From an uncultured Gammaproteobacteria bacterium (GTDB lineage: Bacteria > Patescibacteriota > Patescibacteriia > UBA2196): a DNA stretch of 64,000 nucleotides. The stretch's first letter is position 1, and every line of letters begins with the position of its first letter. The stretch spans positions 20,538 through 84,537 of the forward strand of contig CAYSXS010000001.1 in the NCBI GenBank assembly GCA_964435065.1. Direction: 5' to 3'. Positions 18,119-35,646 of this stretch are shown here, piece by piece. Below the pieces are notes generated by a model. The model saw only the letters and a program-made list of their open reading frames with translations, ran no database searches and was not told the DNA's origin. Both the position numbers and the translations under genes were made by a program.

Positions 18119-19028
18119 GAGAATTAATGAAATTTATCATGATTGGGAAGCAAAATATTATTTAGAACGGCATCCTGAGATTTTTAAACAAGAAAGAAAT
18201 AACTGGCAAAAGTTTGCTAGTAAGTTTTTTACAAGTGAAAGAGCTAAAAGAATTTTAGATGTGGGTTGTGGTACAGGATTTGTTCCTCAGGTTATTGGAA
18301 GATATCTAACAAAAGATGATGAATTTTTTTGTAGTGATATTTCTTCTGATATGCTTGAAACTGCTAAAGATAATTTATCTAAGAATGGTTATATAAATAA
18401 ATTTTATTTTTTAAAGGGTAGTATTGAAGAATTAAATTTTGAACCAGAAAGTTTAGATATTGTTATTATAAATTCAGTTCTACATCATTTACCAGATATA
18501 GAAATATTTTTTAAAGAATCAAATAGGATTTTAAAACCTGGTGGTAAGTTAATTATATTTCATGAACCTAATAAAAAGTTTTTTCAACATAGTTTTTTAA
18601 GAAATAACTTTTTATTATTACAATATATTAAAAACACAGTTTTTAAGTTTAGAAAAAACTTAAGAGGACGGGTTTCAGATAAAAAAGAAAAAGAAGATAT
18701 TTTTGACTACATAAATAAAATACTTAAACAAGAAGAGTTAATTAGTAAAGATCTAGATAAAACAGAAATAAAGCAATTTGTTGATTATGGATCACCTACA
18801 GCATCTGGTAAAATAGATAAAGATAGAGGATTTGATATAAATGAGATCCAACAGCAATATTTAACTAATTTTAGTATTTTAGAGTTTACAACATACAATT
18901 ATTTGTGTAAGATTAATCATCGTTCAAATTTAATATTAACCCTTTATAACTACTTATTAAGCAGGTTTTGGCCTAAATCAGGGAGTAGTTGGGGAGCTAT
19001 TTTAGAAAAAAATGATACAACAAACTAA
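18033..19028 (+). CDS. Class I SAM-dependent methyltransferase. The true start is probably the ATG at 18096.
   Basis: ILDVGCGTGFV (motif I), LDIVIINSVLHHL. The track start at 18033 overlaps the upstream gene by 85 nt, whereas the internal ATG at 18096 would overlap by only 23 nt. Confidence 0.7.
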   Translation: MVEQQLKNLIGILLSQDILKFMNQQKLVKRINEIYHDWEAKYYLERHPEIFKQERNNWQKFASKFFTSERAKRILDVGCGTGFVPQVIGRYLTKDDEFFCSDISSDMLETAKDNLSKNGYINKFYFLKGSIEELNFEPESLDIVIINSVLHHLPDIEIFFKESNRILKPGGKLIIFHEPNKKFFQHSFLRNNFLLLQYIKNTVFKFRKNLRGRVSDKKEKEDIFDYINKILKQEELISKDLDKTEIKQFVDYGSPTASGKIDKDRGFDINEIQQQYLTNFSILEFTTYNYLCKINHRSNLILTLYNYLLSRFWPKSGSSWGAILEKNDTTN

Positions 19029-20337
19029 AAATCTATTTAAAATCAACTTTGTTAAAGATGTAGCAACTCTTCAGGTTGGTAAAATTGTATCAATGATATT
19101 GAGTGTGGCTGCTTCAATAGTTTTTGCGCGTGTTTTAAAAATAGAAGGATATGGAATTTATGGGTTGATTTTTTCTTTTGCAGGTATCTTAGGTATTTTA
19201 ATGAGTTGGGGGTCCATACATGCCACAGTAACACTATTATCAAAAGCATATGCTCAAAAAGATAAAATTGAAGTAAAAAATGTTTTATCTTATTTCGTAG
19301 GTTTAAATTTGATTAAGATCTGTACTTTAGGGATAATTTTTTATATATTAGCGCCATGGCTTAGTCAATTATTTTATCATAATATTCAAGTAGGTTTGTT
19401 GGTTAGAGTTATATTACTTGCTAATTATATAGAGATAGTTTTTTCCATGTTCACTGTTGTTTTGCAGGTTAGTCGTCGTATTAAAAAATTAACTTTAATT
19501 GAGACTTTTAAAAAGTTTATGATAAGTATCTTGCCGGCAGGGTTTGTACTTATTGGTTTAGGTCTTTCGGGTTTAGTTCTGGGACATTTTTTAGTAGCAG
19601 TTATCTTTTTATTAATTTCTTTTGGGATTTATTCTATTTATGGTCCACGCGATGCCTTATTGCCAAGTTTTAGAGATATTTTTAAAAACATTTCATTAAA
19701 AATAATTGCTAAGTATTTTAGGTTTGGCTTTGCGGTAGCTATAAATAAAAATCTGGGTAGTTTAATAGCGCATTTACCAATATTTTTACTTGGTTTTTTT
19801 GCTAGCTTAACAGATATTGGTTATTACAAGGTGGCAATGGCATATATTGTTTTGCCGAATATGTTTTTAGGACCTGTAAGTAGATTACTGAATGTACAAT
19901 TACCAAAGTCAATTAATTATAGTAATTCTATTTTTAAACAACATCTTATAAAAACCTCTTTATATTCAGGGTTTACTATGTTGGTAACATCGATTCCGTT
20001 GGTTTTATTATCTTCTTTTTTGATTTCTTTTTTTTATGGAGCAGAATATATGGGAGCAAGTAAATTGGTTTATTATTTAATATCACTAACTATCACATCA
20101 GGGTTTGCTGTTGGGTTTAGTCCGTTTTTCAGAACTGTAAGAAAAATGAAAGTAGCAATAATAATGTCGTTTTGTCAGTTTGCTTTAATTTTATTATCTG
20201 CGATTTTGGCTATATATACATTTAATGTTGATCCATTGATGGCTATAGTAGTGGCTTTAACAGCGGTTAGTTTTTTATTTTTTATTATTAATTGGTTATA
20301 CATTTTAAAATATTTCAAAAAAATTAAATTTACATAA
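19012..20337 (+). CDS. Wzx-like oligosaccharide flippase (MOP/polysaccharide biosynthesis protein family)
   Basis: 441 aa with about 12 TM helices. The N-terminal VGKIVSMILSVAASIVFARVL pattern is typical of Wzx/RfbX. Confidence 0.6.
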   Translation: MIQQTKNLFKINFVKDVATLQVGKIVSMILSVAASIVFARVLKIEGYGIYGLIFSFAGILGILMSWGSIHATVTLLSKAYAQKDKIEVKNVLSYFVGLNLIKICTLGIIFYILAPWLSQLFYHNIQVGLLVRVILLANYIEIVFSMFTVVLQVSRRIKKLTLIETFKKFMISILPAGFVLIGLGLSGLVLGHFLVAVIFLLISFGIYSIYGPRDALLPSFRDIFKNISLKIIAKYFRFGFAVAINKNLGSLIAHLPIFLLGFFASLTDIGYYKVAMAYIVLPNMFLGPVSRLLNVQLPKSINYSNSIFKQHLIKTSLYSGFTMLVTSIPLVLLSSFLISFFYGAEYMGASKLVYYLISLTITSGFAVGFSPFFRTVRKMKVAIIMSFCQFALILLSAILAIYTFNVDPLMAIVVALTAVSFLFFIINWLYILKYFKKIKFT

Positions 20338-21497: not shown

Positions 21498-21568
21498 TCT
21501 CAAAATAATTATGAGAGAAGATAAAGAAACAAACCTAAAGTATATTAATATTTTATGTTAAAAAAAGG

Positions 21569-21614
21569 AAAACAATCAAGATTTTGTACGGCAGATTTTG
21601 GTGGTGGATAACCA
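21569..21614 (+). promoter_or_regulatory. Conserved ~45-nt upstream element R1, a candidate cis-regulatory site for a methyltransferase gene
   Basis: AAAACAATCAAG...GTACGGCAGATTTTGGTGGTGGATAACCA. A near-identical copy lies at 22512-22556. It contains the inverted repeat TTTGGT-N9-ACCA. Confidence 0.45.
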
Positions 21615-21663: not shown

Positions 21664-22473
21664 ATGAATAAAGAAAAAGAATTATTCAAATTCTATAATC
21701 AAAATAAAGAGTATTATTCCTTAATAGAAGATAGTCATAAGCAAGATAATACTTTCCCTATACATAAACAAATTATCAGAGGATGTAACAAAAAACAAGG
21801 TTTGATAGTGGATCTTGGTTGTGGGGTTGGTGTTGATATTTTTGGGATGTCAAGTAACGCAAATTTTTGTTTAGGAATGGATATTTCAAGTTTTGCAATC
21901 GCACAAGCGACACAAAACAAAGATCATAACAAAAATATTGAATTTAAGCAGGCGAATTTAGAAAAATTGCCATTAAAGGATAGTAGTGTTGACACCGTGA
22001 CATCTTTTTTTACATTTGAACATTTATTTAATCCAGAAAAAGTTTTGGATGAGGTTGATCGTGTATTGAAAAGTAAAGGTGAATTTTTTTTACTTTGTCC
22101 AAATTACGTTAGTCCGTTTCGGGGAGCACCTATTTTTGGTGGGGTTCATAAGCTAAAGGTCTTGTATAAGATGATGCTTTATTTGTGGCGCATGGTAAAT
22201 GTATCTCTGTTTAGAAAAAAAGATTTTAGAGTCAGGTTGATTGACTCAAATTTGATTGATCTGACAAAAATCGGTGAAGATTGGGACGCTGTCAATGAGC
22301 CTTCGGTCTTCGAATTTGTTCATTATTTTAGACGTAAAGGGTATTCTGTTGATTTTCAAACTTGGCTTTCTCCCGTAAAGAGTGGTGTTGAGAAGTTTTT
22401 TTCATATTTTAAGAAGATATTGGTTATAAAATATTGTGGACCAGTGTGTTATCTTCATGTAGTTAAGAAATAA
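21664..22473 (+). CDS. Class I SAM-dependent methyltransferase
   Basis: VDLGCGVGVDIFGMS (motif I), VDTVTSFFTFEHL. Confidence 0.7.
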   Translation: MNKEKELFKFYNQNKEYYSLIEDSHKQDNTFPIHKQIIRGCNKKQGLIVDLGCGVGVDIFGMSSNANFCLGMDISSFAIAQATQNKDHNKNIEFKQANLEKLPLKDSSVDTVTSFFTFEHLFNPEKVLDEVDRVLKSKGEFFLLCPNYVSPFRGAPIFGGVHKLKVLYKMMLYLWRMVNVSLFRKKDFRVRLIDSNLIDLTKIGEDWDAVNEPSVFEFVHYFRRKGYSVDFQTWLSPVKSGVEKFFSYFKKILVIKYCGPVCYLHVVKK

Positions 22474-22511
22474 TGGAGATTAGTTAATAAATTTTTTATA
22501 TCTAAAAAAAT

Positions 22512-22556
22512 AAACAACCAAGGGTGTATAAGGCAGATTTTGGTGGGGGATAACCA
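22512..22556 (+). promoter_or_regulatory. Conserved upstream element R2, paralogous to R1
   Basis: AAACAACCAAGGGTGTATAAGGCAGATTTTGGTGGGGGATAACCA. Confidence 0.45.
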
Positions 22557-23601: not shown

Positions 23602-24837
23602 ATGTCTAAAGATAATAAACAATTAAAAATTTTGATGTTAACTCATCTTTACTCAAACACATTTCCTGGTGGTGAAACCAGGGCGGCTTGGGAATTTACT
23701 CAAGAGTTGGCTGAAGAGGGTTTAAAAATATATGTAGTAACTACAACAGCTAAAATAGAAAATGTTAAGTTGCATAAAAACATAAAGGTGTATAGGATAC
23801 CTTTTTCAACGCAGTCCAGAAATTTTAGTAAGTTAGATGCTTTTAAAACTTTTTTTTATTCTTTACCAATTATTTTGTTTAAAAGAATTGATATTATTCA
23901 TTTAATCAACACACAAAGCCCGCATCCGTTTGCTTACTTTAAAATAAGACCATATGTTTCTACAGTTGATTTACATTGGAAATATGAGGATAAGAGGTTT
24001 AATAATGATTTAATGTATGATCGTAAACTTAAAAAAGAAGAGTTTGGTTTAGATGAGCAAAAGATGAATTTATTTGATAGGGTTTTAAATAGATTAACTG
24101 TGTATTTTTTTAAATGGTTTAAAATGGGTGAACCTTTGCCTAAAACAGTTGATTTGTGTGCCTATAGACATACAAAATTATTAGAAGGCTTACAACAAAC
24201 AAATCCAGAATCAAGAAAAGTTCATATACCGGTTGGAGCACATACTAATAAGTTTAAACCACAAGACATGCAAGAAAGACATTCAAGCAAAGACACGGTT
24301 TTTTTCTTCGCAGGTACTATTGCAAAAAGAAAAGGTGTGGAGTTTTTGGTTGAAGCTTTTAATTTATTAAATGAAGAAAACGAAGACGTCAAACTATTAT
24401 TGGCTGGGCCAGGTGCACCACAAACAGTTGAATTTATTAAGAATTTGATTAAAAATAAAGACAATGTTAAGCTTTTGGGACAGCTTTCAGCAGATGAATT
24501 AATACATTATTATAACTTAGCAGATGTTTTTGTAGCACCTTCGATCGGAATTGACCTAGGAATTAATAGAGTTGTTATTGAAGCAATGTCTTGTGGAACA
24601 CCAGTTATTATTAATAAAGCTCATGATTCATTGCCTTTGGATGGTAAAACAGGATATTGTGTAGATGGTGGAGATGTTGTTGGTATTAAGGAAGCAATGG
24701 AAAAGTTTATTAAAGATAAAAACTTAATTAAAGAAATGGGTGATAATGCAAGAGAATTTGTTTTAGAGAATCATGGTTGGGGTATTTTAGCTAAAAGATT
24801 AAAAAAATCATATATAGACCTTTTAAAAAATCCATAG
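23602..24837 (+). CDS. Glycosyltransferase family 4
   Basis: VFVAPSIGIDLGINRVVIEAMSCGTPVIINKAHDSLPL. Confidence 0.75.
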   Translation: MSKDNKQLKILMLTHLYSNTFPGGETRAAWEFTQELAEEGLKIYVVTTTAKIENVKLHKNIKVYRIPFSTQSRNFSKLDAFKTFFYSLPIILFKRIDIIHLINTQSPHPFAYFKIRPYVSTVDLHWKYEDKRFNNDLMYDRKLKKEEFGLDEQKMNLFDRVLNRLTVYFFKWFKMGEPLPKTVDLCAYRHTKLLEGLQQTNPESRKVHIPVGAHTNKFKPQDMQERHSSKDTVFFFAGTIAKRKGVEFLVEAFNLLNEENEDVKLLLAGPGAPQTVEFIKNLIKNKDNVKLLGQLSADELIHYYNLADVFVAPSIGIDLGINRVVIEAMSCGTPVIINKAHDSLPLDGKTGYCVDGGDVVGIKEAMEKFIKDKNLIKEMGDNAREFVLENHGWGILAKRLKKSYIDLLKNP

Positions 24838-24852
24838 ACAGAGGAGGAAACA

Positions 24853-26064
24853 ATGTTGAAAGTATTGATTGTCAGTTTGAGGAGTCCTTTTTTGGATTCC
24901 GATAAGGTTTTTCCTCATTTGGCTATATTGTATTTAAAAGCAGTGCTGGATAAGGAAGGAATAGAAAATCAACTTGAGGATAGTTTTGATTTTAATAACC
25001 CTCAAAAATATTCTGGTTTTACTCATTTTGCAATATCTGCTTTATCTTCCCAAATGTTAGAGGCAGATAAAATTCTTGATTTTAAAGAAAAATATTTTCC
25101 AAATATTAAAATAATTTTAGGTGGCCCTGCCTCAACATTCTATTTGGATGAATGTCGAGGGAAATCCTATGATTATTTAGTGGTCGGAGATGGAGAAAAA
25201 GCTATTTTAGAAATTTTATATGATCAAACAGGAAGAATAGTTCAAGACCAAATGACAAGAGATGAAATGAATTTGATGCCAATACCTTTTAGATCAGCAG
25301 AGTTTTTAAATAAGTATGTGTATCATCTTGACAAAGTTCGTGTTACAACTGTGATGACGTCAAGGGGTTGTCCATTTGGATGCGATTTTTGTGAGCACGC
25401 TAGAACAAAAGTTAGGTTATGTACACTAGAGCATATTGAACAAGAGATTATTAATATTAAAGAAATTGGTTTTGGTGGGATTATGTTTTTTGACGATTTG
25501 TTTGCTATGACACTAAAAAGAGTAAAAGATATTGGTCCTATTATTAAAAAACATAACATGATTTTTAGGTGTTTTGGTCATTCTAACACTATGACAGAGG
25601 AAATAGCAGAAACTCTTGCAGACAATGGATGTAAAGAAATAGGTGTTGGGTTTGAAAGTGGTGCACAATCTATTTTGGATGCTGTAAAACACCCAAGAAC
25701 AACTATTGATAAAAATTTAGATTTTGTTAAACTTTGTCATAAGTTTGGTATACGTGTAAAATCTTTTTTTGTTCTAGGTTTGCCCGGCGAAACTGCTGAG
25801 ACAGCCTTGTTAACAGAAAAATTTATCGAAGATTCAGGTGTTGATGATTTTGATTTAGCTGTTTATTATCCTTATCGAGGAACCAGGATAAGAGATAAAA
25901 TGGAAGAATATGATTTAACTTTTGTTGGTAATGGTGAGGAGAATGCAGTTGGTTACTATAAAGGATATGGTGGACATGCAGAAGCCATTATTAACACCTC
26001 TGCTTTATCTGCAGGAGAGATTGTAGCAATAAAAGACAGGATTTTTGAGAAGTATAAGAAATAA
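24853..26064 (+). CDS. Cobalamin-binding (class B) radical SAM enzyme
   Basis: N-terminal B12-binding-like Rossmann domain (IKIILGGPASTF, DYLVVGDGE) followed by the radical SAM CxxxCxxC motif TSRGCPFGCDFCEH. An RBS GAGGAGG precedes the start. Confidence 0.85.
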   Translation: MLKVLIVSLRSPFLDSDKVFPHLAILYLKAVLDKEGIENQLEDSFDFNNPQKYSGFTHFAISALSSQMLEADKILDFKEKYFPNIKIILGGPASTFYLDECRGKSYDYLVVGDGEKAILEILYDQTGRIVQDQMTRDEMNLMPIPFRSAEFLNKYVYHLDKVRVTTVMTSRGCPFGCDFCEHARTKVRLCTLEHIEQEIINIKEIGFGGIMFFDDLFAMTLKRVKDIGPIIKKHNMIFRCFGHSNTMTEEIAETLADNGCKEIGVGFESGAQSILDAVKHPRTTIDKNLDFVKLCHKFGIRVKSFFVLGLPGETAETALLTEKFIEDSGVDDFDLAVYYPYRGTRIRDKMEEYDLTFVGNGEENAVGYYKGYGGHAEAIINTSALSAGEIVAIKDRIFEKYKK

Positions 26065-26076
26065 TAAGTTTATTTG

Positions 26077-26115
26077 TCCCACAATATTCAATTGTGGGGC
26101 ATATTTATTTTCTTG
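26077..26115 (+). terminator. Rho-independent-like terminator
   Basis: CCCACAAT-attca-ATTGTGGG followed by a T-rich tract. Confidence 0.55.
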
Positions 26116-26148
26116 ATTTTATAGTCAAAATCATGGTTTAATTAAGAT

Positions 26149-27237
26149 ATGATAAATATATTAAAAAACATTAAAAACCTATATAGAGCCTATGATAAAA
26201 TGTTAATAGTTCATTTTATTAAACATCTATTTAATAGGTCTTGGCCTCCATATGGTTTAATCCTCTATGTTACTAATAGATGCAACAGCCGTTGCATCAT
26301 GTGTTTTAATTGGAAAATTTTAAATAAAGATTTACAGAATGAATTAACTTTAGAAGAAATAGATAAATTTACAAAAAAAATTGGGAAATTAAAATCAGTT
26401 GGTTTGGGTGGCGGAGAGCCGTCTTTAAGATCTGATTTACCAGAAATTGTTAATTTATTTGTTAAAAACAACAAAGCATCGGTTGTTTTTATTGCTTTTA
26501 ATTCTTTATTACCTGACAGGACTGCAGAACAAGTAGAAGCAATTTTTAAAAAATCACCTGATGTTAGTTTAAAAATTGGTTTATCATTAGATGGGGTAGG
26601 TGATGTTCATGATAAAGTACGTGGTGTTGAAGGTAATTTTGAAAAGTTTTTACAGACATATAAAAAACTGGATGATTTAAAAAAGAAATACCCAAGGTTA
26701 AGAACTAGAATTTGTACTACAGTTTTAAACCAAAATCTTAGTAATATACCAGAATTAATTGAATATGCAAAAGAAAATCTTAAATCAAGTTTTCATGGTT
26801 TAGAATTAGTTAAGGGTAGTGTCCCACAAGCAGACACAAAAGGGTTGGATCTTGAGGAGTATGAGAAAGTAATTAAATCAATTGAAGAAAACGAAAAGGA
26901 TAGTAAAAATATTTATAGAAGGATAATTAATCCACTTTACCAGAAGATGTGTGTTTATGTTTTAAAGCATAAGAAACAGGTCGTACCTTGTAGGATGTCA
27001 AGCTTTATGCCAGTCATTGATGCCCAAGGTAATGTGTATCCTTGTGAGGGTAGAGGAAAAATTGGAAATTTACGTGAAGCAAATTATGATTTAAAAAATA
27101 TTTGGCAATCAGATGGTGCAAAAACTGAAAGAAAGAAAATTAAGCAAGAAAAGTGTTTTTGTACACATTCAGTTTATCAAATTCCAAATGTATATATGAG
27201 TCCTAAAATGTTGTTAAAAATAATTTTTAGTAAATAG
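26149..27237 (+). CDS. Radical SAM enzyme with a C-terminal SPASM/twitch-like Cys-rich domain
   Basis: YVTNRCNSRCIMCFNW (CxxxCxxC), and C-terminal cysteines CRMSSF...YPCEGRG...CFCTHS. Confidence 0.8.
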   Translation: MINILKNIKNLYRAYDKMLIVHFIKHLFNRSWPPYGLILYVTNRCNSRCIMCFNWKILNKDLQNELTLEEIDKFTKKIGKLKSVGLGGGEPSLRSDLPEIVNLFVKNNKASVVFIAFNSLLPDRTAEQVEAIFKKSPDVSLKIGLSLDGVGDVHDKVRGVEGNFEKFLQTYKKLDDLKKKYPRLRTRICTTVLNQNLSNIPELIEYAKENLKSSFHGLELVKGSVPQADTKGLDLEEYEKVIKSIEENEKDSKNIYRRIINPLYQKMCVYVLKHKKQVVPCRMSSFMPVIDAQGNVYPCEGRGKIGNLREANYDLKNIWQSDGAKTERKKIKQEKCFCTHSVYQIPNVYMSPKMLLKIIFSK

Positions 27238-27238
27238 T

Positions 27239-28171
27239 ATGTATTTAAGTGTTGTTATCCCAACTCATAATAGGAAAGATTGTTGTAAAGAAGTTTTGCT
27301 ATCTTTTAATAATCAAAACTTTAAAGATTTTGAAATAGTAGTTATTGATGATGGCTCAAAAGAGTGTATTGAGGACATGATAAATAATTTAGAAGTATCT
27401 TTTCCTATACGTTTTGTTCGTCAAGAAAATTTAGGACAAGGCTCAGCTAGGAATTTAGGCATTAAAAATTCTCAAGGGGAAATAATCTTTTTTATAGACG
27501 ATGATTGTATTCCAGTCGACCCAGATCTCTTAAGAATACACGCAGAAGCCCATAAAAATGCTAATAACAACAAGGCAGTATTTTTGGGCTTAACTATATT
27601 ACATCCATCTATAAAAATTACACCTTTTGTTAAATATATTGATGGTTATCATTTGGCATATGATAAAATAACAGACCCAAATAATGTGCCTCCAGGATGT
27701 TTCTATACAGACAATGTTTCTGTTAGTAAAGAGTTTTTAATTCAATCGGGCATGTTTGATGAAGGGTTTTTCCCTAATGCAGCATATGAGGATGGGGAAT
27801 TAGGTTATCGTTTGCATAAAAATGGTATGAAAATGTCTTTTATTCCTGAAGCAAAAGTATGGCACAATAACCATATAACATTTAAGTCATACCCACATGA
27901 TATGTGGAAAAGAGGTTATTGGTCTGTACGTTTAGCTGAAAAAGTTCCAGAGTTGAAATATAAGACAAATATAAATGAAACAAAGAATATTTTTAAATTA
28001 ATTTTAAAAAGAATCATTTTTAATAAAGTCATTATGAATTTCTGTGTTAAAGTAATAAGTTTTCTTGATAAAAACAATATAAAAATTCCAATAGTTGTTT
28101 ACAGGAAAGTGTTAGATTTTTATAAAATACGAGGAATTAAAGATTATAAAAAAGAAAAAGGATTAATATGA
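27239..28171 (+). CDS. Glycosyltransferase family 2
   Basis: LSVVIPTHNRKDCCKEVLLSF...FEIVVIDDGS... and a DxD region (FIDDDCIP). Confidence 0.8.
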   Translation: MYLSVVIPTHNRKDCCKEVLLSFNNQNFKDFEIVVIDDGSKECIEDMINNLEVSFPIRFVRQENLGQGSARNLGIKNSQGEIIFFIDDDCIPVDPDLLRIHAEAHKNANNNKAVFLGLTILHPSIKITPFVKYIDGYHLAYDKITDPNNVPPGCFYTDNVSVSKEFLIQSGMFDEGFFPNAAYEDGELGYRLHKNGMKMSFIPEAKVWHNNHITFKSYPHDMWKRGYWSVRLAEKVPELKYKTNINETKNIFKLILKRIIFNKVIMNFCVKVISFLDKNNIKIPIVVYRKVLDFYKIRGIKDYKKEKGLI

Positions 28172-29094
28172 ACGATCAGCCTAAAATTTCTATTATCATA
28201 GCAAACTATAATGGGCAAGAGTTTTTGGCTGATTGTTTAGAATCAATTTTAAAATCTGATTATTCAGATTTTGAAGTTATCTTGGTTGATAATAACTCTA
28301 CCGACGATTCAGTAGAAATAATTAGAAATCAATTTCCTCAGGCAAAACTCATTATTAATAAAAAGAACTTAGGTTTTTCTAGAGCTAATAATATTGGTAT
28401 AGAACAGGCAAGCGGGGATGCTTATTTATTAATAAACAATGATACAATAATAAAACCTGATTTAGTTAAAGTTTTAAGCAATGAATTGTTTAGTTCAGAA
28501 AAAATAGGGATTGTTGGCCCAAAGATTTATTTCTTAGAAAAAGGGAAAGATTTAGAAAACCAAAAAACTATTTGGTTTGCTGGTGGTAAAATTGATTGGC
28601 AAAAAGCCAAAAGTTGGCATATTAGTAGAAATAAAGATGATTACAAAGATGAAAAAAAAGAAGTAGATTTTATTACAGGATGTACTTTAATGATAAAAAA
28701 AGAAGTTGTTGAAAAAATTGGGCTACTTGAAAAAAAGTTTTTTGCCTACTATGAAGATGCTGATTGGTGTCAACGAGCAAAAAAAGCAGGTTACAAGGTA
28801 TTATATATACCTTTTGGTGGTGTATGGCATTTAAAGTCAGCTACAGCTAGTCGTCACATTTTTAATAAAAATAGTAGTAAGATAAAGATTGTCTTGGAAT
28901 ATCTTAGTAATCTTAACCGTTTAAAATATAATCAATGGCGTAATCGTTTTATTTTTTATATACGTTGGCAGCCTAGAAAATATTTATTTAGATTTTTAAT
29001 AGATTTTATAATTTTAAAAACACCAATTTTTATTTATTCGATTTTGGTTCTAAGTCCAATTTCTTTAATTAAAATAGTTAAAAATCATTTATGA
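28168..29094 (+). CDS. Glycosyltransferase family 2 with a C-terminal membrane segment
   Basis: ISIIIANYNGQEFLADCLESI...FEVILVDNNSTDDS, and the DxD motif LINNDTII. Confidence 0.8.
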   Translation: MNDQPKISIIIANYNGQEFLADCLESILKSDYSDFEVILVDNNSTDDSVEIIRNQFPQAKLIINKKNLGFSRANNIGIEQASGDAYLLINNDTIIKPDLVKVLSNELFSSEKIGIVGPKIYFLEKGKDLENQKTIWFAGGKIDWQKAKSWHISRNKDDYKDEKKEVDFITGCTLMIKKEVVEKIGLLEKKFFAYYEDADWCQRAKKAGYKVLYIPFGGVWHLKSATASRHIFNKNSSKIKIVLEYLSNLNRLKYNQWRNRFIFYIRWQPRKYLFRFLIDFIILKTPIFIYSILVLSPISLIKIVKNHL

Positions 29095-30659
29095 ATAAAA
29101 AAATTAAAATTTTACTTATTGTTTTAGTTTTATTTGTAGTATCGATGGCTGTTCATTATTATCCTGTTTACAAAAAAGATTACAGTTTTGGGTTTAATGG
29201 TGGAAATTTAATTTTAGCTCGCAATTTTGCTGAAACAGGTCAGTTTAATTTAGAAAGTCCAGAAAATGTTATTTTAAACAGTCAGTTATCGGCTGAGGAG
29301 GGAATGTATTATAATCCAGGAAATGAATTGACTTATATAATATATGGTAATATTTTTAAATATTTTGGCTTTCAGAAAAATTTAGCTTTGTATTTATCAA
29401 TTTTACTATGGGCATTGAGTGGAACGATTTTATTTTTCTTAGTTAAGAAGTTATTTAATTTAAAAACAGCAATAATCTTTGGTGTAGTTACTATTTTTCT
29501 GCCATTTATTTTACAGGGGGTATTAATAAGTGGTTTTTATGAATGGGCGATTTTGTTTTTTTCTATTGCTTTGTTTTTGTTTTTTAATATAAAGGAAAAG
29601 TTTTTTTGGCTTAATCTCATATTAGCCGGTATATTTTTTAGTTTAGCGGTTTTATGTAGAAATGTTTTTGTTGTTTCAGTTATACCGTTTGTTATATATG
29701 AATTTTATCGTCATAGATCAATTAAGAAACTACTTTATTTATTATTACCAATTATATTGATTTTAGGTATTTTTTTTGGTAGTACAATAGTAAGTGGGCA
29801 AAAGAGTGACTATTTATCCAAAGAGGATTCAAATTTCTCTAATTATAGTCATCTTTATCCGGATCCATATACTTTTCATTTTGAAAAAGAAGAGTACCTT
29901 GAAACAATACAAGGTACTTCAAATTCAATGTTTTCTGAATATTTACTTAAGTATGACCAAAAGGTTAGTTTAAAGAATCAAATTATTATGTATTTTGCTT
30001 CAATTAAATTTTACCCTAAGGAATTTATTAAATTAATAATATCAGGTGGACCATTAATTATATTATTAATGTTTTTGGGCATATATTATTTATTTAAAAA
30101 AGACAAGAGATTGTTTAAATTGTTTATGTTGTGGTTTGTTGTTTGGTATGTTTTATTAGTTATTTTAAAAACAAATAACTGGGATCATTTTCTTGAGTTA
30201 AGTTGGCCTATAGGATTATTAATTGCATTAGGGATATATTATTTATTTGATTTTATTTGTAAATTAGAGATAAAAAAGAATTTTAAGTATCTAGCACTTG
30301 TTTTAATAAGTTTATGTATAATCTTACATTTTATGCAGGCTAATAAATGGATGTTGCATGAAGAATATAATACTTCAAATATAGACACTGTTATGGCACT
30401 TGTACCGTTTATTGATAATGCAGATATTGGGAACAAGGATGTTGTTGTTACTAGCCATCACCCAGGAACACCATTGATACTTAATTATTATACTAATAAG
30501 AATTTTATATATTTTCATACTGAGACAATAAAAAAACTGCTAGCCGAAGAAAGCTTACAGTCTGCTTTTCAAAAGTTTGGGGTAACTCACATTGTTGGAT
30601 TTGATAATGATTTAAGTAATCAAATATATACTCAAACTTCTGTAAATATAATTAAATAG
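29091..30659 (+). CDS. GT-C fold membrane glycosyltransferase (ArnT/PMT-like)
   Basis: Multi-TM protein. The first-loop region FNGGNLILARNFAETGQF resembles the ArnT 'YAEIAREMLETGDW' motif. Confidence 0.5.
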   Translation: MNKKIKILLIVLVLFVVSMAVHYYPVYKKDYSFGFNGGNLILARNFAETGQFNLESPENVILNSQLSAEEGMYYNPGNELTYIIYGNIFKYFGFQKNLALYLSILLWALSGTILFFLVKKLFNLKTAIIFGVVTIFLPFILQGVLISGFYEWAILFFSIALFLFFNIKEKFFWLNLILAGIFFSLAVLCRNVFVVSVIPFVIYEFYRHRSIKKLLYLLLPIILILGIFFGSTIVSGQKSDYLSKEDSNFSNYSHLYPDPYTFHFEKEEYLETIQGTSNSMFSEYLLKYDQKVSLKNQIIMYFASIKFYPKEFIKLIISGGPLIILLMFLGIYYLFKKDKRLFKLFMLWFVVWYVLLVILKTNNWDHFLELSWPIGLLIALGIYYLFDFICKLEIKKNFKYLALVLISLCIILHFMQANKWMLHEEYNTSNIDTVMALVPFIDNADIGNKDVVVTSHHPGTPLILNYYTNKNFIYFHTETIKKLLAEESLQSAFQKFGVTHIVGFDNDLSNQIYTQTSVNIIK

Positions 30660-30667
30660 TTATATCC

Positions 30668-31612
30668 TTATTCCTTATTTATTAAGACGTCAGGTTTTTT
30701 ATCCACGTCTTTTATTGTTGATAAACTTTTTATAAAAAATAAACCCAATACAGCAATAATCCAATAACCAAAGATAGAATATAGTATTCCTAAACTCAAA
30801 TTTATGTTTGCTGGAGCTACACCTGCGAATAAATATACAATAGCTGAGTCTCTAGTACCCATACCTGCCAGTGTCACTGGCAATATCCCAATAAACAAGG
30901 CTATTGGAAGTGTTAAACAAATAAAAATAAAGGAAACTTGTATACCTAATGCAAGATATAAGAAATATACTTGTAAAAAGGTTCCTAACCAGTTTAATAA
31001 AGTTATTAAAGCAATTTGTATGAATTGTTTTGGTTTTTTGATTAATATCTTTGAGCAATAGAAAACATTATTAATTTTTTCTCTATATTTATCTTTTATC
31101 GGTAATTTCATTTCATTTATATATTTTGCCAAGATAAAAAAAATAACAATAGCTATAAGGCCAGCTATCATTATTAATACAATTATTGTGTTTTTGTAAA
31201 TTATCCCGCCAATGAGAGCTAAAATTAGTAGAAGTAATATATCAAAAACTCTTTCTATTAAAATACTTCCAGCTGTCTTGCTTACGGGTACAGAATTCTT
31301 AATAGGGTTAGCTCGGATTAAATCACCTGCTTTTGAAGGAGTAACACTTGATAGAGACCATGCTCCCATTACGATTTTAAATGCTTTCCAAAAACTTAAG
31401 CTAAAACCCATTGAATTTAAAATGATGCGCCATCTAAGTGCACCAAAAACTGGATAGGTTAGTATTACTGAAAAAGTTGCTAACAGCCACCAAAGATTAG
31501 CATTTAATATAATATTCCAAACAGAATTAAGATCGATTTGTCTGAAAAGCAAATAAAAAACAACAAAAGTTGTAATTAAAATAATAAAGAATTTTAAATA
31601 TTTTTTTATCAT
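30668..31612 (-). CDS. Flippase-like domain membrane protein (UPF0104 / LPG-synthase TM-region family)
   Basis: 8 TM helices with the pattern ...YPVFGALRWRIILNSMGFSLSFWKAFKIVMGAWSLSSVTPSKAGDLIR... Confidence 0.55.
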   Translation of the reverse strand: MIKKYLKFFIILITTFVVFYLLFRQIDLNSVWNIILNANLWWLLATFSVILTYPVFGALRWRIILNSMGFSLSFWKAFKIVMGAWSLSSVTPSKAGDLIRANPIKNSVPVSKTAGSILIERVFDILLLLILALIGGIIYKNTIIVLIMIAGLIAIVIFFILAKYINEMKLPIKDKYREKINNVFYCSKILIKKPKQFIQIALITLLNWLGTFLQVYFLYLALGIQVSFIFICLTLPIALFIGILPVTLAGMGTRDSAIVYLFAGVAPANINLSLGILYSIFGYWIIAVLGLFFIKSLSTIKDVDKKPDVLINKE

Positions 31613-33063
31613 GTTGTTTTTTTGTCTTTTGGGAATGTGTTTTTGATAATAACAGACAAAAGTTTAGAACCAGCCTTAAAGTTATTTTTTAAAGCATCCC
31701 AACTACGTAACTCTTTTAGTCTTCTAAATATATATTTAGGATTTAAATAATATTGGCCATATGCATCAATTAATATCTTATACAATTGTTCACGTGTAAA
31801 TATTTCTTCCCAAGCAGGTGCTTTAAAGTCTGGTTGTGGATTTTTAGAAAACTTTTGCCAATAGTCTTCTTTGATAATATTTTCATTTAACCCTTTAAGG
31901 TATAGGTCGGTTGCGGGGAAAGGTGTTAGCACAGTGAAGTGAACAAAGTCTGGGAACATCTTTTTTGCTAACTTAATAGTTTCTTTAATGTCAGACATTG
32001 TTTCTGTTGGTGATCCAATCATAAAATATCCAGCAGTTTCTATGCCTGCTTCTTTTGTTAGTTTAAAAGCTGTTTCAACTTGTTCTAAAGTAATTCCTTT
32101 ACGTAAGACAGTTAGTATTTTTTTTGTTCCAGCTTCAACTCCATAATGGATACGTGTACAACCAGCAGACTTCATTAACAAAAGTAATTCTTTATCAACT
32201 GTATTAACTCTTGCGCGAATATCCCATTTAAGTTTTATTTTTTTATCTAGAATTAAATTACAAATATTTACTACACGTTGTCTATCAATGGTAAAAGTGT
32301 CGTCGTAAATAAAGACTTCATTAATTCCCATTTCTTGAATTTTCTCCATTTCTTTTACAACATCTTCAGCAGATCTAGCTCTGAATATTTTACCTAAATG
32401 GGGGCGATCACAAAACAAACATTTGTATGGGCAACCACGAGAAGTAAACATAGTAGTGGTTGGGTTTTTGTGAGCCATGATTGAATAATACTTTTTATAT
32501 GGTGTTAATTCGCGTGCAGGCATTGGTAGTTGGTCTAAATCCATTATTAACTCTCTTTTACCTGTATTAACAATTTTTTTGTTTGTATCTCTGAATACTA
32601 GGCCTCGTATATCTTTTAGCTTGTCTAAATCGTGAATATTATTCAATAAATCAATAAATGGCTGTTCTCCTTCACCTAAAACCAAGAAATCAACTTCTAA
32701 GTTATCCATTGTTTCTTCTGGATAGATGTTTACGTGTGGTCCACCTAAAACTATTTTTATCTCTGGATTAACTTCTTTAATTAATTTAGCTGTTTTAATA
32801 ACATCAATTAAAGTAAAAGTCATAGCAGTAATCCCAACTACGTCTGGTTTTTCTTCTTTAATCTTTTCTTGTATATTGGTGTAGTTTACCTTTTCTATTT
32901 CACAGTCTAATATTTTAACATCAAAATTTGTTTTTTCTTTAACATATGCAGCAATATACATTAATCCTAAAGGAGGTAAAAAATCCATGCCAGATTCTAA
33001 TTCTTTTGGCATGTCGCTCTCAATAATATTTTTAATGGGTGGATTAATTAGTAGAATCTTCAT
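31609..33063 (-). CDS. Cobalamin-binding (class B) radical SAM enzyme
   Basis: N-terminal B12-binding domain (KIVLGGPHVN, DFLVLGEGE) followed by the radical SAM motif FTSRGCPYKCLFCDRP. Confidence 0.85.
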   Translation of the reverse strand: MKILLINPPIKNIIESDMPKELESGMDFLPPLGLMYIAAYVKEKTNFDVKILDCEIEKVNYTNIQEKIKEEKPDVVGITAMTFTLIDVIKTAKLIKEVNPEIKIVLGGPHVNIYPEETMDNLEVDFLVLGEGEQPFIDLLNNIHDLDKLKDIRGLVFRDTNKKIVNTGKRELIMDLDQLPMPARELTPYKKYYSIMAHKNPTTTMFTSRGCPYKCLFCDRPHLGKIFRARSAEDVVKEMEKIQEMGINEVFIYDDTFTIDRQRVVNICNLILDKKIKLKWDIRARVNTVDKELLLLMKSAGCTRIHYGVEAGTKKILTVLRKGITLEQVETAFKLTKEAGIETAGYFMIGSPTETMSDIKETIKLAKKMFPDFVHFTVLTPFPATDLYLKGLNENIIKEDYWQKFSKNPQPDFKAPAWEEIFTREQLYKILIDAYGQYYLNPKYIFRRLKELRSWDALKNNFKAGSKLLSVIIKNTFPKDKKTT

Positions 33064-33799
33064 AAAGATATTTTTCTATGGAAACACAATCAAATCTTTT
33101 AACAATATATTGTAACTTTTTCCAAGTATTTTTAGTGTTATAGTATTTAAGGAATTTTTTAATAAATGTCATTTTAATATTTGGTACCTCAGTTGCAAAA
33201 TCAAATGGATGAAAATATAAACAAGTAGATTTTTTAATCGTTTTGTTTTTCAATAAGGTTTTAAATAAAAACCAGGGGATAGCTCTGATATAAAAACCAC
33301 CACTAAAAACTTTTATTTCTTTAAAATTATCTATATTAAATAAATTAGGTTTTATACTTAAAGGCAATATTGAAGAGTCATATTTTAAATTATTTTCTTT
33401 TAATACTTTTATTGACCACTCTGTAGATTTATTTAATGAAAAATTAACTGCTCGATGTCCAATTGGTTTTTTGTCGATTAAACTTTCAATCTGACTGATT
33501 AATTGTTTAATTTCTTCATTAAACATTTCTGGATTTTTATCCCACAATGGTTTATGGTCTGAAGAATGAACAGCAATTTCGTGACCAGCATTAGAAATTT
33601 GTTTTACTACATTTGGTTCTTTGTCTAAAACTTTTTTAGTAACAAAGAAGGTAGCAGTTGAATTTGTTTGTTTTAATAAGTTTAATAGGTTATTAATAAA
33701 GGTTGCCACTTCGTCCTTTTCATTACCAAGTAAATATTTTTGTATAGAGAGTGATTCAAACCAATACTCTAAATCAAATGTAAGTAAAATCTTTTTCAT
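33044..33799 (-). CDS. Polysaccharide deacetylase (NodB homology, CE4), ArnD/NaxD-like
   Basis: LTFDLEYWFE...ATFFVTKKVL...AGHEIAVHSSDHKPLW, which covers the NodB motifs TFD(D) and H-S-x-x-H. Confidence 0.75.
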   Translation of the reverse strand: MKKILLTFDLEYWFESLSIQKYLLGNEKDEVATFINNLLNLLKQTNSTATFFVTKKVLDKEPNVVKQISNAGHEIAVHSSDHKPLWDKNPEMFNEEIKQLISQIESLIDKKPIGHRAVNFSLNKSTEWSIKVLKENNLKYDSSILPLSIKPNLFNIDNFKEIKVFSGGFYIRAIPWFLFKTLLKNKTIKKSTCLYFHPFDFATEVPNIKMTFIKKFLKYYNTKNTWKKLQYIVKRFDCVSIEKYLYEDSTN

Positions 33800-33800
33800 G

Positions 33801-34703
33801 TTATTTTCTATTTAACTCTCTACGGATAGCAGCAAGTTGATCAGCTATTAAACCAAAGAAAAAGATTAAAACCGAAGTTATGAATAATAGGACGGTACTA
33901 TCAGTGATGTTGTTAAATTCAGAAATTAAAATATCATTTATGAATAGGCCTAAGAATCCTAAGAAAAATAAACCACTGATTGGTAAAAAGATTCGTAAAG
34001 GTGAGAAAAGCATAATTAAGCGGATTATCAACATAAAATAGGTGAGTGCATCTTTTGGGTTAACTAGACTTTTTCCACTATCACGTTTATTTATTTCAAG
34101 AGGGACAAATTTAATATTTAACTTTTCTTTAAGAAAAGCAAAGACACTTGTAGTTGAACAAGAAAAACCATCTGGATATAAATGTTCGAATCGTAAAAAT
34201 TCGTCACGTTTTATTAATCTTAATCCACAATTAAAGTCATTTACTTTATGACCCAATAAATATCTAGCTAACCAATGGATAACCTTTTTGCCTGGTTGGC
34301 GAATCCATGGACCTTGGTAACCTTGTCTTTCTCCAGCTATTAGATCATATTCATCTGTGTATTTTAGCATTTCTTCAATATACTTTGGGTTATGTTGACC
34401 ATCTGCATCAAAAGTTAAAACCCAATCATGTTTAGCATTCTTAGCTCCAGTTTTTAGTCCAGCACCGTATCCCTTATTGTATGAATGATTAATGGTTTTA
34501 ATATTTTCAATACTTTCAAGAACACTTTTTGTATTATCTGTAGAAGCATCGTTGATTACTATAATTTCAAAATTTTCTAAATTTAAATTATTTAGTGTAT
34601 TTTTTAAATTATCTAATACAGATTTAATACTGTCAGCTTCGTTGTATGCTGGTATAATAACTGAAATGTTTTTAGTTTGAGGGTTATTCATATTATTTAT
34701 CAT
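33801..34703 (-). CDS. GT2 polyprenyl-phosphate sugar synthase (GtrB/ArnC/DPM1-like) with C-terminal TM helices
   Basis: ISVIIPAYNEADSIKSVLDNL...FEIIVINDASTDNT...FDADGQH, and two C-terminal TM segments. Confidence 0.75.
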   Translation of the reverse strand: MINNMNNPQTKNISVIIPAYNEADSIKSVLDNLKNTLNNLNLENFEIIVINDASTDNTKSVLESIENIKTINHSYNKGYGAGLKTGAKNAKHDWVLTFDADGQHNPKYIEEMLKYTDEYDLIAGERQGYQGPWIRQPGKKVIHWLARYLLGHKVNDFNCGLRLIKRDEFLRFEHLYPDGFSCSTTSVFAFLKEKLNIKFVPLEINKRDSGKSLVNPKDALTYFMLIIRLIMLFSPLRIFLPISGLFFLGFLGLFINDILISEFNNITDSTVLLFITSVLIFFFGLIADQLAAIRRELNRK

Positions 34704-35646
34704 AATAATCTAGGTACCAATTAACAAAATTCTTAATACCAGATTTTATTGTTGTTTGTGGTGAGAAATTTAACATTTTTTGTGCTTTTGATAAATCTGC
34801 TTGAGTTTCTAACACTTCACCTGTTTGTATTGGGATATATTCTCGTATAGCTTTTTTATCTAAATATTTTTCTATTAATTCAACAAATTTTATTAATTCA
34901 ATTGATTCATTGCTACCAAGATTAAAAATTTCATAATCAAACGGGTTTTCTAAGGCCAAGGCTGTTCCATTAACAATATCGTCAACATACGACCAATTTC
35001 TTTTCATTTTTCCATTGTTATGTATATTTATTGGTTTATTTTCTAAAATGTTTTTTGTAAAAAGGAAAAGTGCCATATCTGGACGTCCCCACGGGCCATA
35101 AACCGTGAAGTATCTTAATCCAGTTGATTTTATGTTATGCACTTTATAATAACTATATGCAATCATCTCTGTGGCGATTTTAGAAGTAGCATAAAAAGAA
35201 AGTGGGGTTTGTGTTCTGTCGTTTTCTGAAAAAGGAAGCTTCTTGTTATCCCCATAGACACTAGAAGAAGAAGCATAAACAATTTGTTTAATATTAAATT
35301 CTTTTGCTAATTCAAAAATATTTAAGGTGCCTAGAATATTTGTTTGTTCGTATGCAAAAGGGTTTTCTACAGAATAACGTACACCAGCTTGAGCAGCTAA
35401 GTGAACAATTTTATCTATTTTATTCTCTTTAAAAACTTCCCTTAGTTTTTGTATATCAGAAATGTCAATTCTGTATAACTTAAAATTAAAACCTTTTAAT
35501 AAGATTTTAATTCGATCTTCTTTTAATTGGGGGTCATAATAATCATTGAAATTATCAACAATAATTATATTATGATTTTGTTGGATTAACTTTTTAGCTA
35601 CCTGTGATCCAATAAAACCAGCTCCACCTGTTATTAAAATATTCAT
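34693..35646 (-). CDS. NAD-dependent sugar-nucleotide epimerase/dehydratase (SDR; GalE/WbpP-like 4-epimerase candidate)
   Basis: MNILITGGAGFIGSQVAKKL (GxxGxxG), and the catalytic YxxxK motif (YATSK). Confidence 0.75.
   Translation of the reverse strand: MNILITGGAGFIGSQVAKKLIQQNHNIIIVDNFNDYYDPQLKEDRIKILLKGFNFKLYRIDISDIQKLREVFKENKIDKIVHLAAQAGVRYSVENPFAYEQTNILGTLNIFELAKEFNIKQIVYASSSSVYGDNKKLPFSENDRTQTPLSFYATSKIATEMIAYSYYKVHNIKSTGLRYFTVYGPWGRPDMALFLFTKNILENKPINIHNNGKMKRNWSYVDDIVNGTALALENPFDYEIFNLGSNESIELIKFVELIEKYLDKKAIREYIPIQTGEVLETQADLSKAQKMLNFSPQTTIKSGIKNFVNWYLDYYDK

Follow-up and report, generated by a model that had tools for sequence, protein, structure and literature searches.

The radical SAM and glycosyltransferase (GT) genes described here probably (about two chances in three) belong to a gene island of some 60 kb that directs the assembly of cell-surface glycans in a bacterium of the Patescibacteria (CPR), and in which each radical SAM enzyme would act as the tailoring partner of a glycosyltransferase. 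The window, that is, the whole stretch of 64 kb that we have analysed, contains around 17 GT4 and seven GT2 glycosyltransferases, four PMT_2-type proteins, two phosphoglycosyl transferases, Wzx and Wzy_C, and its designation as a glycan island over the entire length is supported. Among these genes are the Wzx-type flippase (19012 to 20337, plus strand; Pfam Polysacc_synt) and an initiating phosphoglycosyl transferase (35673 to 37091, minus strand; Bac_transf, E 6e-65), accompanied on the minus strand by a NAD-dependent nucleotide-sugar epimerase/dehydratase (34693 to 35646; Pfam Epimerase, E 2e-59). The five SAM methyltransferases of the original prediction were all recovered by Pfam as class I enzymes of the island (starts at 9576, 12035, 18033, 21664 and 22798); the one at 21664 to 22473 (plus strand) matched Methyltransf_11 and related models.

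On the plus strand, a GT4 glycosyltransferase (23602 to 24837; Pfam Glycos_transf_1, E 2e-29) is followed after 15 nt by the first radical SAM gene (rSAM1, 403 aa, 24853 to 26064) and then by the second (rSAM2, 362 aa, 26149 to 27237), a soluble GT2 with no predicted TM segment (GT2a, 27239 to 28171; Pfam GT2, E 1.7e-24), a second GT2, which carries a single TM segment at its C terminus (GT2b, 28168 to 29094; Pfam GT2, E 7e-30), and a GT-C-like polytopic membrane protein, 522 aa long (29091 to 30659). The predicted tandem of two radical SAM genes ahead of two GT2 genes is therefore present. From rSAM2 to the GT-C-like gene consecutive stops and starts touch or overlap, GT2a beginning 1 nt past the end of rSAM2. 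The five-gene module was found again in seven related Patescibacteria loci (L001, L002, L007, L012, L013, L014 and L042), and in the same seven the GT-C-like gene is conserved after GT2a. The best NCBIfam match of GT2a was EpsD (178 bits, under the cutoff of 370), and GT2b keeps the GT-A motifs. The protein at 29091 had been called a GT-C; it is indeed a polytopic membrane protein (about 11 predicted hydrophobic TM segments), but its PMT_2 match is sub-threshold (23.5 bits versus 26.1), so that membership of the GT-C family is likely rather than proven. It gave no match in NCBIfam and none to the sequence of any solved structure.

As read from its sequence, rSAM1 is a two-domain enzyme with a B12-binding-like Rossmann domain at the N terminus, a radical SAM core (Pfam Radical_SAM, E 1.2e-19) and a putative use of cobalamin. 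Its cluster motif, C173-x3-C177-x2-C180, can be read straight off the sequence, as predicted, and the cysteines are invariant among the homologues; the predicted B12-binding domain clears the Pfam gathering score only by a narrow margin (32.5 bits versus 32.1). This N-terminal domain can be aligned to that of the third radical SAM enzyme of the window (rSAM3, see below), a genuine B12-domain enzyme. Neither a cobalamin riboswitch nor an uptake gene was found in the window, which carries no weight on cobalamin use by rSAM1. The AF2 cores match radical SAM structures, and the closest solved relative of rSAM1, top match by both structure and PDB sequence, is AprD4 (PDB 6fd2), the radical SAM 1,2-diol dehydratase of apramycin biosynthesis. 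Because AprD4 is a cobalamin-independent sugar diol dehydratase, methylation by rSAM1 is not a given, and the step from class B to C-methylation is not supported: none of the curated methylase families of NCBIfam (PhpK, HpnP/HpnR, GenK-like, TsrM and others) was reached, the best being PhpK with 116 bits versus 600 and every other match likewise falling far short of its cutoff. The AprD4-type diol dehydratase model itself was not reached either (NF033070, 77.9 bits versus a cutoff of 500), and Pfam revealed no adjacent SDR gene in the window as partner reductase for an AprD4-type enzyme. rSAM1 may perform either cobalamin-dependent C-methylation of a sugar carbon (GenK-like) or diol dehydration (AprD4-like).

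Glycosyltransferase genes flank rSAM1 both within and beyond CPR. An orthologous GT4 precedes it in L001, L002 and L013, and some GT does so in five further loci, L003, L015, L124 and, from the viral collection, L126 and L133; the gene order in viral-collection contigs is GT2, rSAM1-like gene and GDP-mannose dehydratase-like gene. Other relatives are found in glycan clusters of an Actinobacteria MAG and of one other contig. The tandem with rSAM2, although real here, is no general feature, since only 6 of the 37 loci have rSAM1 and an rSAM2 homologue no more than 5 kb apart; it is a lineage-specific arrangement. The two genes are 84 nt apart, and the gap holds a hairpin with an 11-pair stem plus a T-run (26075 to 26101, plus strand), the strongest terminator-like one in the 19-38 kb region. 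In the closest relative (L007) a different hairpin sequence plus T-run occupies the equivalent place. A terminator-like structure at this place suggests that the co-transcription of rSAM1 with rSAM2 is not strict in this window.

In rSAM2 (Pfam Radical_SAM, E 6e-19) the radical SAM motif C45-x3-C49-x2-C52 is invariant in the homologues, and four C-terminal cysteines (C281, C299, C336 and C338) are invariant across 115 of them. The original prediction of a SPASM-type enzyme holds as regards the CxxxCxxC motif, the C-terminal cysteines and the Pfam SPASM match (29.3 bits versus a cutoff of 21.5), but not as regards a full SPASM domain. The seven-cysteine motif (CX9-15GX4C ... CX2CX5CX3C ... C), the ligand set for two auxiliary clusters, is absent, the spacing being C281-x12-G-x4-C299 and C336-x-C338 only, and the four invariant cysteines leave room for one auxiliary cluster. 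We therefore classify rSAM2 as a Twitch-type enzyme, with a shortened SPASM-like domain and the ligands for one predicted auxiliary [4Fe-4S] cluster. Position 342 is Cys in 82% of the homologues and Val here. The NCBIfam model N_Twi_rSAM was not reached (63.8 bits versus 170). The fold matches BtrN, SkfB, MoaA and SpeY, and the sugar-acting BlsE, DesII, BtrN and SpeY are among the top matches; DesII has no auxiliary cluster.

Clustering at 50% identity divides the rSAM2 family into about 2,000 clusters, and the family is encoded straight after a GT2 gene or in one polypeptide with a GT2. A gene of the GT2b type, the conserved partner, lies directly upstream of the rSAM2 homologue, separated from it by -17 to +41 nt, in 17 of the 37 loci; among the 21 closest loci the count is 16. 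The taxa concerned include Patescibacteria, DPANN archaea (Woesearchaeota), Nitrospirae, Thermodesulfobacteriota and Sabulitectum; for the most distant third of the loci, a limited local search detected no GT beside the homologue. Fusions of GT2 and radical SAM make up around 50 clusters (600-711 aa) from several phyla, and all eight long representatives tested have the GT2 at the N terminus and the radical SAM at the C terminus. In one such fusion (L036, 682 aa, 35% identical to rSAM2) the three cysteines of the radical SAM motif and the four that are invariant in the C-terminal part align with those of rSAM2; its GT2 half is 24% identical to GT2b. Other members combine the radical SAM with GT26 (P0072), with LPG_synthase_TM (P0292) or with a pyruvyl transferase (P0312). 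Taken together, the glycan island, the recurrence of the module, the adjacency to GT2 genes across phyla and archaea and the GT fusions support the role in glycan biosynthesis originally proposed. No characterised member was found among the clusters of the rSAM2 family or in that of rSAM1, and neither protein reached a curated NCBIfam cutoff, so that their substrates and chemistry can only be inferred.

The coupling and fusion to transferases show these enzymes to work together with the transferase, without thereby fixing the order relative to glycosyl transfer. We favour a scheme in which the partner GT2 would act at the membrane and join a sugar onto an intermediate carried by a lipid (polyprenyl phosphate), whereupon rSAM2 would cleave SAM and take a hydrogen atom from the attached sugar. 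The auxiliary cluster, as electron acceptor, would help to resolve the substrate radical, and the product might be a keto, decarboxylated or deoxy residue, by chemistry of the BtrN or BlsE type. Epimerisation with a cysteine as donor appears less likely because rSAM2 has no spare conserved cysteine. The original prediction placed the modification before transfer, a claim on which gene order and fusion are silent as far as action upon a nucleotide sugar is concerned. Modification of soluble nucleotide sugars, giving a C-methylated, epimerised or deoxygenated NDP-sugar for use by the neighbouring GTs, would fit the NDP-sugar dehydratase, epimerase and aminotransferase genes that adjoin rSAM1 relatives, and a GT fusion could channel a labile donor. 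We nevertheless consider it unlikely, given the consistent order of GT first and radical SAM second, the fusion partners that are membrane-bound or use lipid-linked acceptors (GT26, LPG_synthase_TM) and the preference of most characterised sugar-acting radical SAM enzymes for glycosides over NDP-sugars (AprD4, GenK, BtrN, BlsE, HpnJ and Cds; established knowledge and PMC13459092).

A third unit is found on the opposite strand, made up of a GT2 that resembles polyprenyl-phosphate sugar synthases and has two TM segments at its C terminus (GT2c, 33801 to 34703; Pfam and TM prediction), a polysaccharide deacetylase with DUF3473 (33044 to 33799; Pfam), rSAM3 (31609 to 33063) and a flippase-like membrane protein (30668 to 31612; LPG_synthase_TM, E 3e-45; NCBIfam TIGR00374 flippase-like domain). 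The predicted third radical SAM enzyme is confirmed by strong matches to B12-binding (101.9 bits) and Radical_SAM (100 bits). By Pfam and NCBIfam it resembles HpnJ and BchE but is an orthologue of neither (TIGR03471, 231 bits versus a cutoff of 577.6, with no hopanoid genes in the window; BchE, 218.6 versus 481). GT2c has the GtrB/ArnC architecture and PgfS, AglJ, ArnC and PpgS as best NCBIfam matches, and the deacetylase best matches the polysaccharide deacetylase of the XrtA system (131.8 bits, short of the cutoff). rSAM3 might modify a deacetylated polyprenyl-phosphate amino sugar, in parallel to HpnI-HpnK-HpnJ and ArnC-ArnD; once the product had been flipped, the GT-C-like protein would transfer it outside the cell.

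Lipids rather than sugars could be the substrates, the polyprenol carrier or membrane lipids being, for instance, methylated, cross-linked or joined through ethers as in Tes, Grs or ladderane chemistry. rSAM2 weakly matches the tetraether synthase Tes (51.9 bits) and PDB 7tol, rSAM1 and rSAM3 match a "lipid biosynthesis B12-binding/radical SAM protein" model, and one rSAM2 relative is fused to LPG_synthase_TM. All these matches are, however, far under the family cutoffs, the invariant partner, fusions included, is a glycosyltransferase, and lipid-synthesis genes are absent from the window, making this explanation improbable. Maturation of a RiPP or surface protein, which rSAM2 would cross-link or oxidise much as SkfB, anSME or a sactisynthase does before the GT2s glycosylate the product, is the most improbable of all: SkfB is the best PDB sequence match of rSAM2, and GT2a and GT2b weakly match MftF and SunS, but with only 44 residues ahead of the CxxxCxxC motif rSAM2 has no room for an N-terminal recognition domain, the sole small ORF in the gap between rSAM1 and rSAM2 (23 aa, 26045 to 26116, overlapping the hairpin) has no counterpart in the closest relative, no conserved precursor ORF and no peptidase, exporter, sulfatase or Mft genes were found nearby, and the cross-phylum synteny partners are GTs and not peptides.

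Returning to radical SAM enzymes as partners of glycosyltransferases, we would tentatively go further, accepting that the odds are somewhat against us, and propose that the GT2-coupled and GT2-fused Twitch enzymes are an unrecognised bifunctional class, in which transfer is followed by radical editing of the sugar to produce unusual residues in the envelope glycans of anaerobes such as CPR bacteria and DPANN archaea. The module of the window would then be a split version with two additional B12-type radical SAM tailoring steps, and keto, deoxy, C-branched, carbocyclic or cross-linked sugars would be the candidate residues. A family as large and unstudied as that of rSAM2, nearly always adjacent or fused to GTs, suggests that surface glycans undergo radical chemistry so far unexplored.

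Among known systems, the cobalamin-dependent class B methyltransferases, both the sugar-acting GenK, GenD1 and Fms7 and the solved MgmA, CysS and TsrM, differ from rSAM1, which has a marginal B12 match, reaches no methylase model and lacks the extra C-terminal domains found in most methylases. AprD4 is 22% identical to rSAM1, but the N-domains cannot be aligned at the sequence level, and no AprD3-type reductase is next to rSAM1. Moreover, AprD4 is no cobalamin-binding protein (PMC12931638); the N-domain of rSAM1, by contrast, can be aligned to that of rSAM3, whose B12 domain is genuine. The carbohydrate-acting Twitch/SPASM enzymes BtrN, BlsE and SpeY are 12-20% identical to rSAM2, and the peptide-acting SkfB, SuiB and anSME score about equally against it; rSAM2 is found in a primary cell-envelope glycan locus and in a GT2-coupled or GT2-fused family, and not in an antibiotic pathway. 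In the hopanoid head-group system HpnI-HpnK-HpnJ the N-acetyl-hexosamine that a GT2 has added to the lipid loses its acetyl group to a deacetylase and is then remodelled by a radical SAM enzyme (PMC13459092). The minus-strand unit follows the same logic as this system and the calditol synthase Cds, its GT2, deacetylase and HpnJ-like B12 radical SAM enzyme being followed by a membrane protein, but the deacetylase is of another family (Polysacc_deac_1) and GT2c resembles a polyprenyl-phosphate sugar synthase and not HpnI. With GtrA/GtrB/GtrC, ArnC-ArnD-ArnE/F-ArnT and PpgS/Rv3779 the window has four kinds of part in common: a GT2 with two C-terminal TM segments, a putative modifying enzyme for the lipid-linked sugar, a protein resembling flippases and, as transferase, one of GT-C-like character. 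It differs from them in that no protein reaches an equivalog cutoff, the GT-C match is sub-threshold and the modifying step would be carried out by a radical SAM enzyme.

The radical SAM and glycosyltransferase genes lie where the original prediction had placed them, as confirmed by Pfam domains, CxxxCxxC motifs and gene coordinates. The first enzyme (rSAM1, 24853-26064, plus strand, 403 aa) matches Radical_SAM at E 1.2e-19 and carries the motif C173-x3-C177-x2-C180, and the second (rSAM2, 26149-27237, 362 aa) does so at E 6e-19 with C45-x3-C49-x2-C52. The first GT2 gene (GT2a, 27239-28171) starts 1 nt past the end of rSAM2 and overlaps by 4 nt with the second (GT2b, 28168-29094), which in turn overlaps by 4 nt with the gene of a 522-aa membrane protein (29091-30659). 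From this 1-nt gap and the two overlaps it follows that the four genes are translationally coupled. The last protein had been described as a GT-C. It is a membrane protein, with about 11 hydrophobic segments, but its family match is sub-threshold (PMT_2, 23.5 bits, below the 26.1 cutoff), and a GT-C is its likely identity from sequence. An NCBIfam scan assigned no family to the three radical SAM proteins of the window, the GT2s or the GT-C.

How much of this arrangement is conserved can be seen in the homologous loci. The nearest relative (L007) has the five genes in the same order, and three other close Patescibacteria relatives (L001, L002, L013) have the order rSAM1, GT2b, rSAM2, GT2a, GT-C-like. 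Of the 37 non-redundant loci, 17 have a GT2b-type gene immediately 5' to the rSAM2 homologue and in the same orientation (gap -17 to +41 nt), including loci of Woesearchaeota, Nitrospirae, Thermodesulfobacteriota and Sabulitectum; for the closest rSAM2 homologues the proportion is 16 of 21. A rSAM1 gene lies within 5 kb of the rSAM2 homologue in only 6 of the 37, and the tandem radical SAM pair is therefore a local rearrangement. The predicted tandem upstream of two GT2 genes is thus real in the window but local, and the true partner of rSAM2 is of the GT2b type. Judging from gene order, what is conserved is the pairing of a GT2 with rSAM2. GT2b is probably an active transferase, since the usual GT-A motifs are kept.

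The association extends to gene fusion. In the homologous locus L036 a single 682-aa ORF has a GT2 domain at the N terminus and a rSAM2-like domain at the C terminus, the latter 35% identical to rSAM2 and with the three radical SAM and four invariant C-terminal cysteines aligned. A search with this ORF retrieved roughly 50 clusters (90% identity) of 600-711 aa with both PF00535 and PF04055, whose named sources include Patescibacteria, Omnitrophica, Poribacteria and Altiarchaeota, and another rSAM2 relative (P0072) is fused to GT26/WecG. With E <= 1e-30 as the limit, an exhaustive profile search retrieved 2,026 cluster representatives (clustering at 50% identity). Among the best 150 family representatives, 13 are 608-719 aa long, and the eight long representatives tested all have the GT2 domain N-terminal and the radical SAM domain C-terminal. 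The genome-collection scan was based on the closer alignment A4; the broad alignment A1 had no sufficiently conserved stretch. These fusions confirm the GT2-rSAM2 coupling. Family members carry no annotation beyond "radical SAM protein" or "glycosyltransferase", and what the locus adds is a large GT2-coupled and GT2-fused family, in which the natural fusions are ready constructs for finding substrate and reaction. Extra fusion architectures near rSAM2 in sequence space were listed for three proteins, P0292 (radical SAM/SPASM plus LPG_synthase_TM, 494 aa), P0312 (polysaccharide pyruvyl transferase plus radical SAM, such fusions being about 845 aa) and P0318.

We propose that each radical SAM enzyme would edit the sugar handled by its own partner transferase, with a lipid-linked intermediate, located at the membrane, as the most likely substrate. 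The third enzyme (rSAM3, 31609-33063) belongs to a minus-strand unit with the order phosphoglycosyl transferase, epimerase, GT2c (33801-34703), polysaccharide deacetylase (33044-33799), rSAM3 and a flippase-like LPG_synthase_TM protein (30668-31612). GT2c carries a pair of TM segments at its C terminus and scores best against the polyprenyl-phosphate sugar synthases PgfS, AglJ, ArnC and PpgS; for rSAM3 the closest families are HpnJ (231 bits) and BchE (218.6 bits), neither of which reaches its cutoff. Another homologous locus (L016) has an uninterrupted same-strand run of four genes: GT-C-like, rSAM3, flippase-like and GT2c. That the radical SAM enzymes act on nucleotide sugars ahead of transfer is, in our view, the less probable alternative.

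With regard to chemistry, rSAM2 had been predicted to be SPASM-type. The Pfam SPASM match does pass (29.3 bits vs a threshold of 21.5), but not the full seven-cysteine domain, which holds two auxiliary clusters: in an alignment of 115 homologues only C281, C299, C336 and C338 are invariant outside the radical SAM triad, spaced C-x12-G-x4-C ... C-x-C, and position 342 is Cys in 82% of these homologues and Val in the rSAM2 of the window. Four invariant cysteines suffice for one auxiliary cluster, not two, and by this pattern rSAM2 is Twitch-like; a Pfam SPASM match alone does not make a two-cluster enzyme. We favor for rSAM2 a hydrogen-atom abstraction followed by oxidation via the auxiliary cluster, which by analogy with BtrN and BlsE would result in dehydrogenation or oxidative decarboxylation. 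Epimerisation with a cysteine as donor is less likely because there is no spare conserved cysteine.

As to the class B assignment of rSAM1, its B12-binding match is marginal (32.5 vs 32.1 bits, barely over the Pfam threshold), and cobalamin use is no more than a possibility. Its N-terminal domain aligns in sequence with that of rSAM3 (26% identity over 358 residues), where the B12-binding match is strong, and gave no sequence alignment with the N-domain of AprD4, the cobalamin-independent sugar diol dehydratase that is its closest solved relative. Even with cobalamin bound, however, rSAM1 could not safely be assigned as a methylase, as B12 radical SAM enzymes also perform ring contraction and cyclisation (HpnJ, BchE, OxsB), and "B12-binding plus radical SAM" should not be equated with methylase. 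Cobalamin-dependent C-methylation and AprD4-like dehydration appear about equally plausible.

The contexts of rSAM1 elsewhere also involve glycan genes. A GT4 gene precedes it in CPR loci (the window, L001, L002, L003, L013, L015), in an Actinobacteria MAG a relative sits between two GT genes with GT2 and PMT_2 proteins near, and on another contig one is placed between Wzx and UDP-glucose dehydrogenase. Full-length relatives (37-43% identity) are common in putatively viral IMG/VR contigs (L126, L133 and about 80 others, L126-L205). The order in L126 and L133 is methyltransferase, GT2, rSAM1-like, unknown protein, GDP-mannose-dehydratase-like, two SDR and a second B12 radical SAM, and the rSAM1-like gene begins before the GT2 gene ends. 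A metagenome scan with the rSAM1 alignment, using search patterns that were too generic, retrieved nothing closer than remote, generic B12 radical SAM genes (<=34% identity). In two cases, a Magnetococcales MAG (L005, 648-3344) and the phage-like contig of P0159, a Band_7 (SPFH) gene is directly downstream of the rSAM1 relative, followed in L005 by a NfeD gene; in these contexts GT genes are either lacking or located a few genes away. Five Patescibacteria glycan loci (L014, L017, L018, L013, L042) each encode 4-6 paralogous B12-binding radical SAM enzymes in a stretch of 20 kb, a striking investment given that Patescibacteria are thought incapable of making cobalamin.

The glycan reading of the radical SAM genes, supported by GT synteny and GT fusions, is also supported by the island in which they lie. 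Pfam scans of almost every ORF found glycan-assembly genes throughout the full 64 kb: about 17 GT4 and 7 GT2 genes, 4 PMT_2-type membrane proteins, two initiating phosphoglycosyl transferases (35673-37091, minus strand, and 57241-58632), a Wzx flippase (19012-20337), a Wzy_C/TPR protein (37778-40048), nucleotide-sugar epimerases or dehydratases, 5 class I SAM methyltransferases and the 3 radical SAM enzymes. The closest relatives of the window proteins are all from Patescibacteria (CPR) metagenome-assembled genomes, G+C is about 28-30%, no tRNA genes were found in the 64 kb, and a bacterial class A RNase P RNA (56841-57214, 107 bits) confirms an origin from a bacterial chromosome. A BrnT toxin and CopG-type antitoxin pair (37211-37775) is located mid-island between divergent operons, and a tyrosine recombinase gene of the phage-integrase family (47916-48749) lies inside the island, with more GT4, GT2 and PMT genes and the second phosphoglycosyl transferase beyond it. 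The island may be a mosaic, or acquired in part. Two proteins had no Pfam match, one of 682 aa (61240-63288, minus strand) and one of 605 aa (13861-15678) with about 12-14 hydrophobic segments, encoded directly upstream of a PMT_2 gene, that could be a further polytopic enzyme of glycan assembly. On either side of a methyltransferase gene (21664-22473) lie the two intergenic copies (21543-21614 and 22485-22556) of a direct repeat of 72 nt with 74% identity; its 25-nt 3' end, GGCAGATTTTGGTGG(T/G)GGATAACCA, is almost the same in both copies, none such is expected by chance, and it had no Rfam match.

A RiPP system would require a precursor, and a complete list of ORFs of 20 aa or longer between 21.4 and 31.7 kb gave a sole candidate, a 23-aa ORF overlapping the rSAM1-rSAM2 gap that is missing from L007. 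Only 44 residues precede the rSAM2 cluster motif, leaving no room for a peptide-recognition domain, and no peptidase or exporter genes were found near rSAM1 or rSAM2. With no conserved precursor, recognition domain, peptidase or exporter, a RiPP role was excluded. The gap itself (84 nt, 26065-26148) contains the strongest terminator-like hairpin of the 19-38 kb region (26075-26101). In L007 the matching gap is 53 nt (1257-1309) and the hairpin sequence differs, with stem and T-run kept, while the last 45 nt or so ahead of the rSAM2 start codon are almost unchanged, which points to conservation of a terminator or attenuator together with a promoter or leader. Weak matches to MftF and SunS raised the idea of a mycofactocin or glycocin pathway, which was rejected, the scores being far under the cutoffs and Mft and precursor genes absent from the locus.

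Sugar editing by enzymes coupled to transferases is the reading we retain; relative to the first interpretation it changes the enzyme class, the sequence of steps and the choice of partner genes. As assigned from sequence, the locus represents an uncharacterised variation on established radical SAM tailoring of sugars. We found in the literature no characterised radical SAM enzyme in polysaccharide or O-antigen loci, CPR bacteria or GT fusions, the nearest case being a radical SAM gene, itself unstudied, from a capsule gene cluster of Campylobacter. The minus-strand sequence of GT2c, deacetylase and rSAM3 mirrors HpnI-HpnK-HpnJ, in which a glucosamine head group undergoes ring contraction (PMC13459092). 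The same unit mirrors the Arn logic, with a lipid-linked sugar edited, then flipped, then transferred by a GT-C. CPR and DPANN surfaces mediate a host-attached lifestyle, and their glycans are, to our knowledge, chemically unknown. As far as we know, sugar radical SAM chemistry has been described almost solely from antibiotic pathways and two lipid head-group cases (HpnJ, Cds); here a predicted radical SAM step recurs in primary cell-surface glycan assembly of CPR and DPANN, physically coupled to the transferase.
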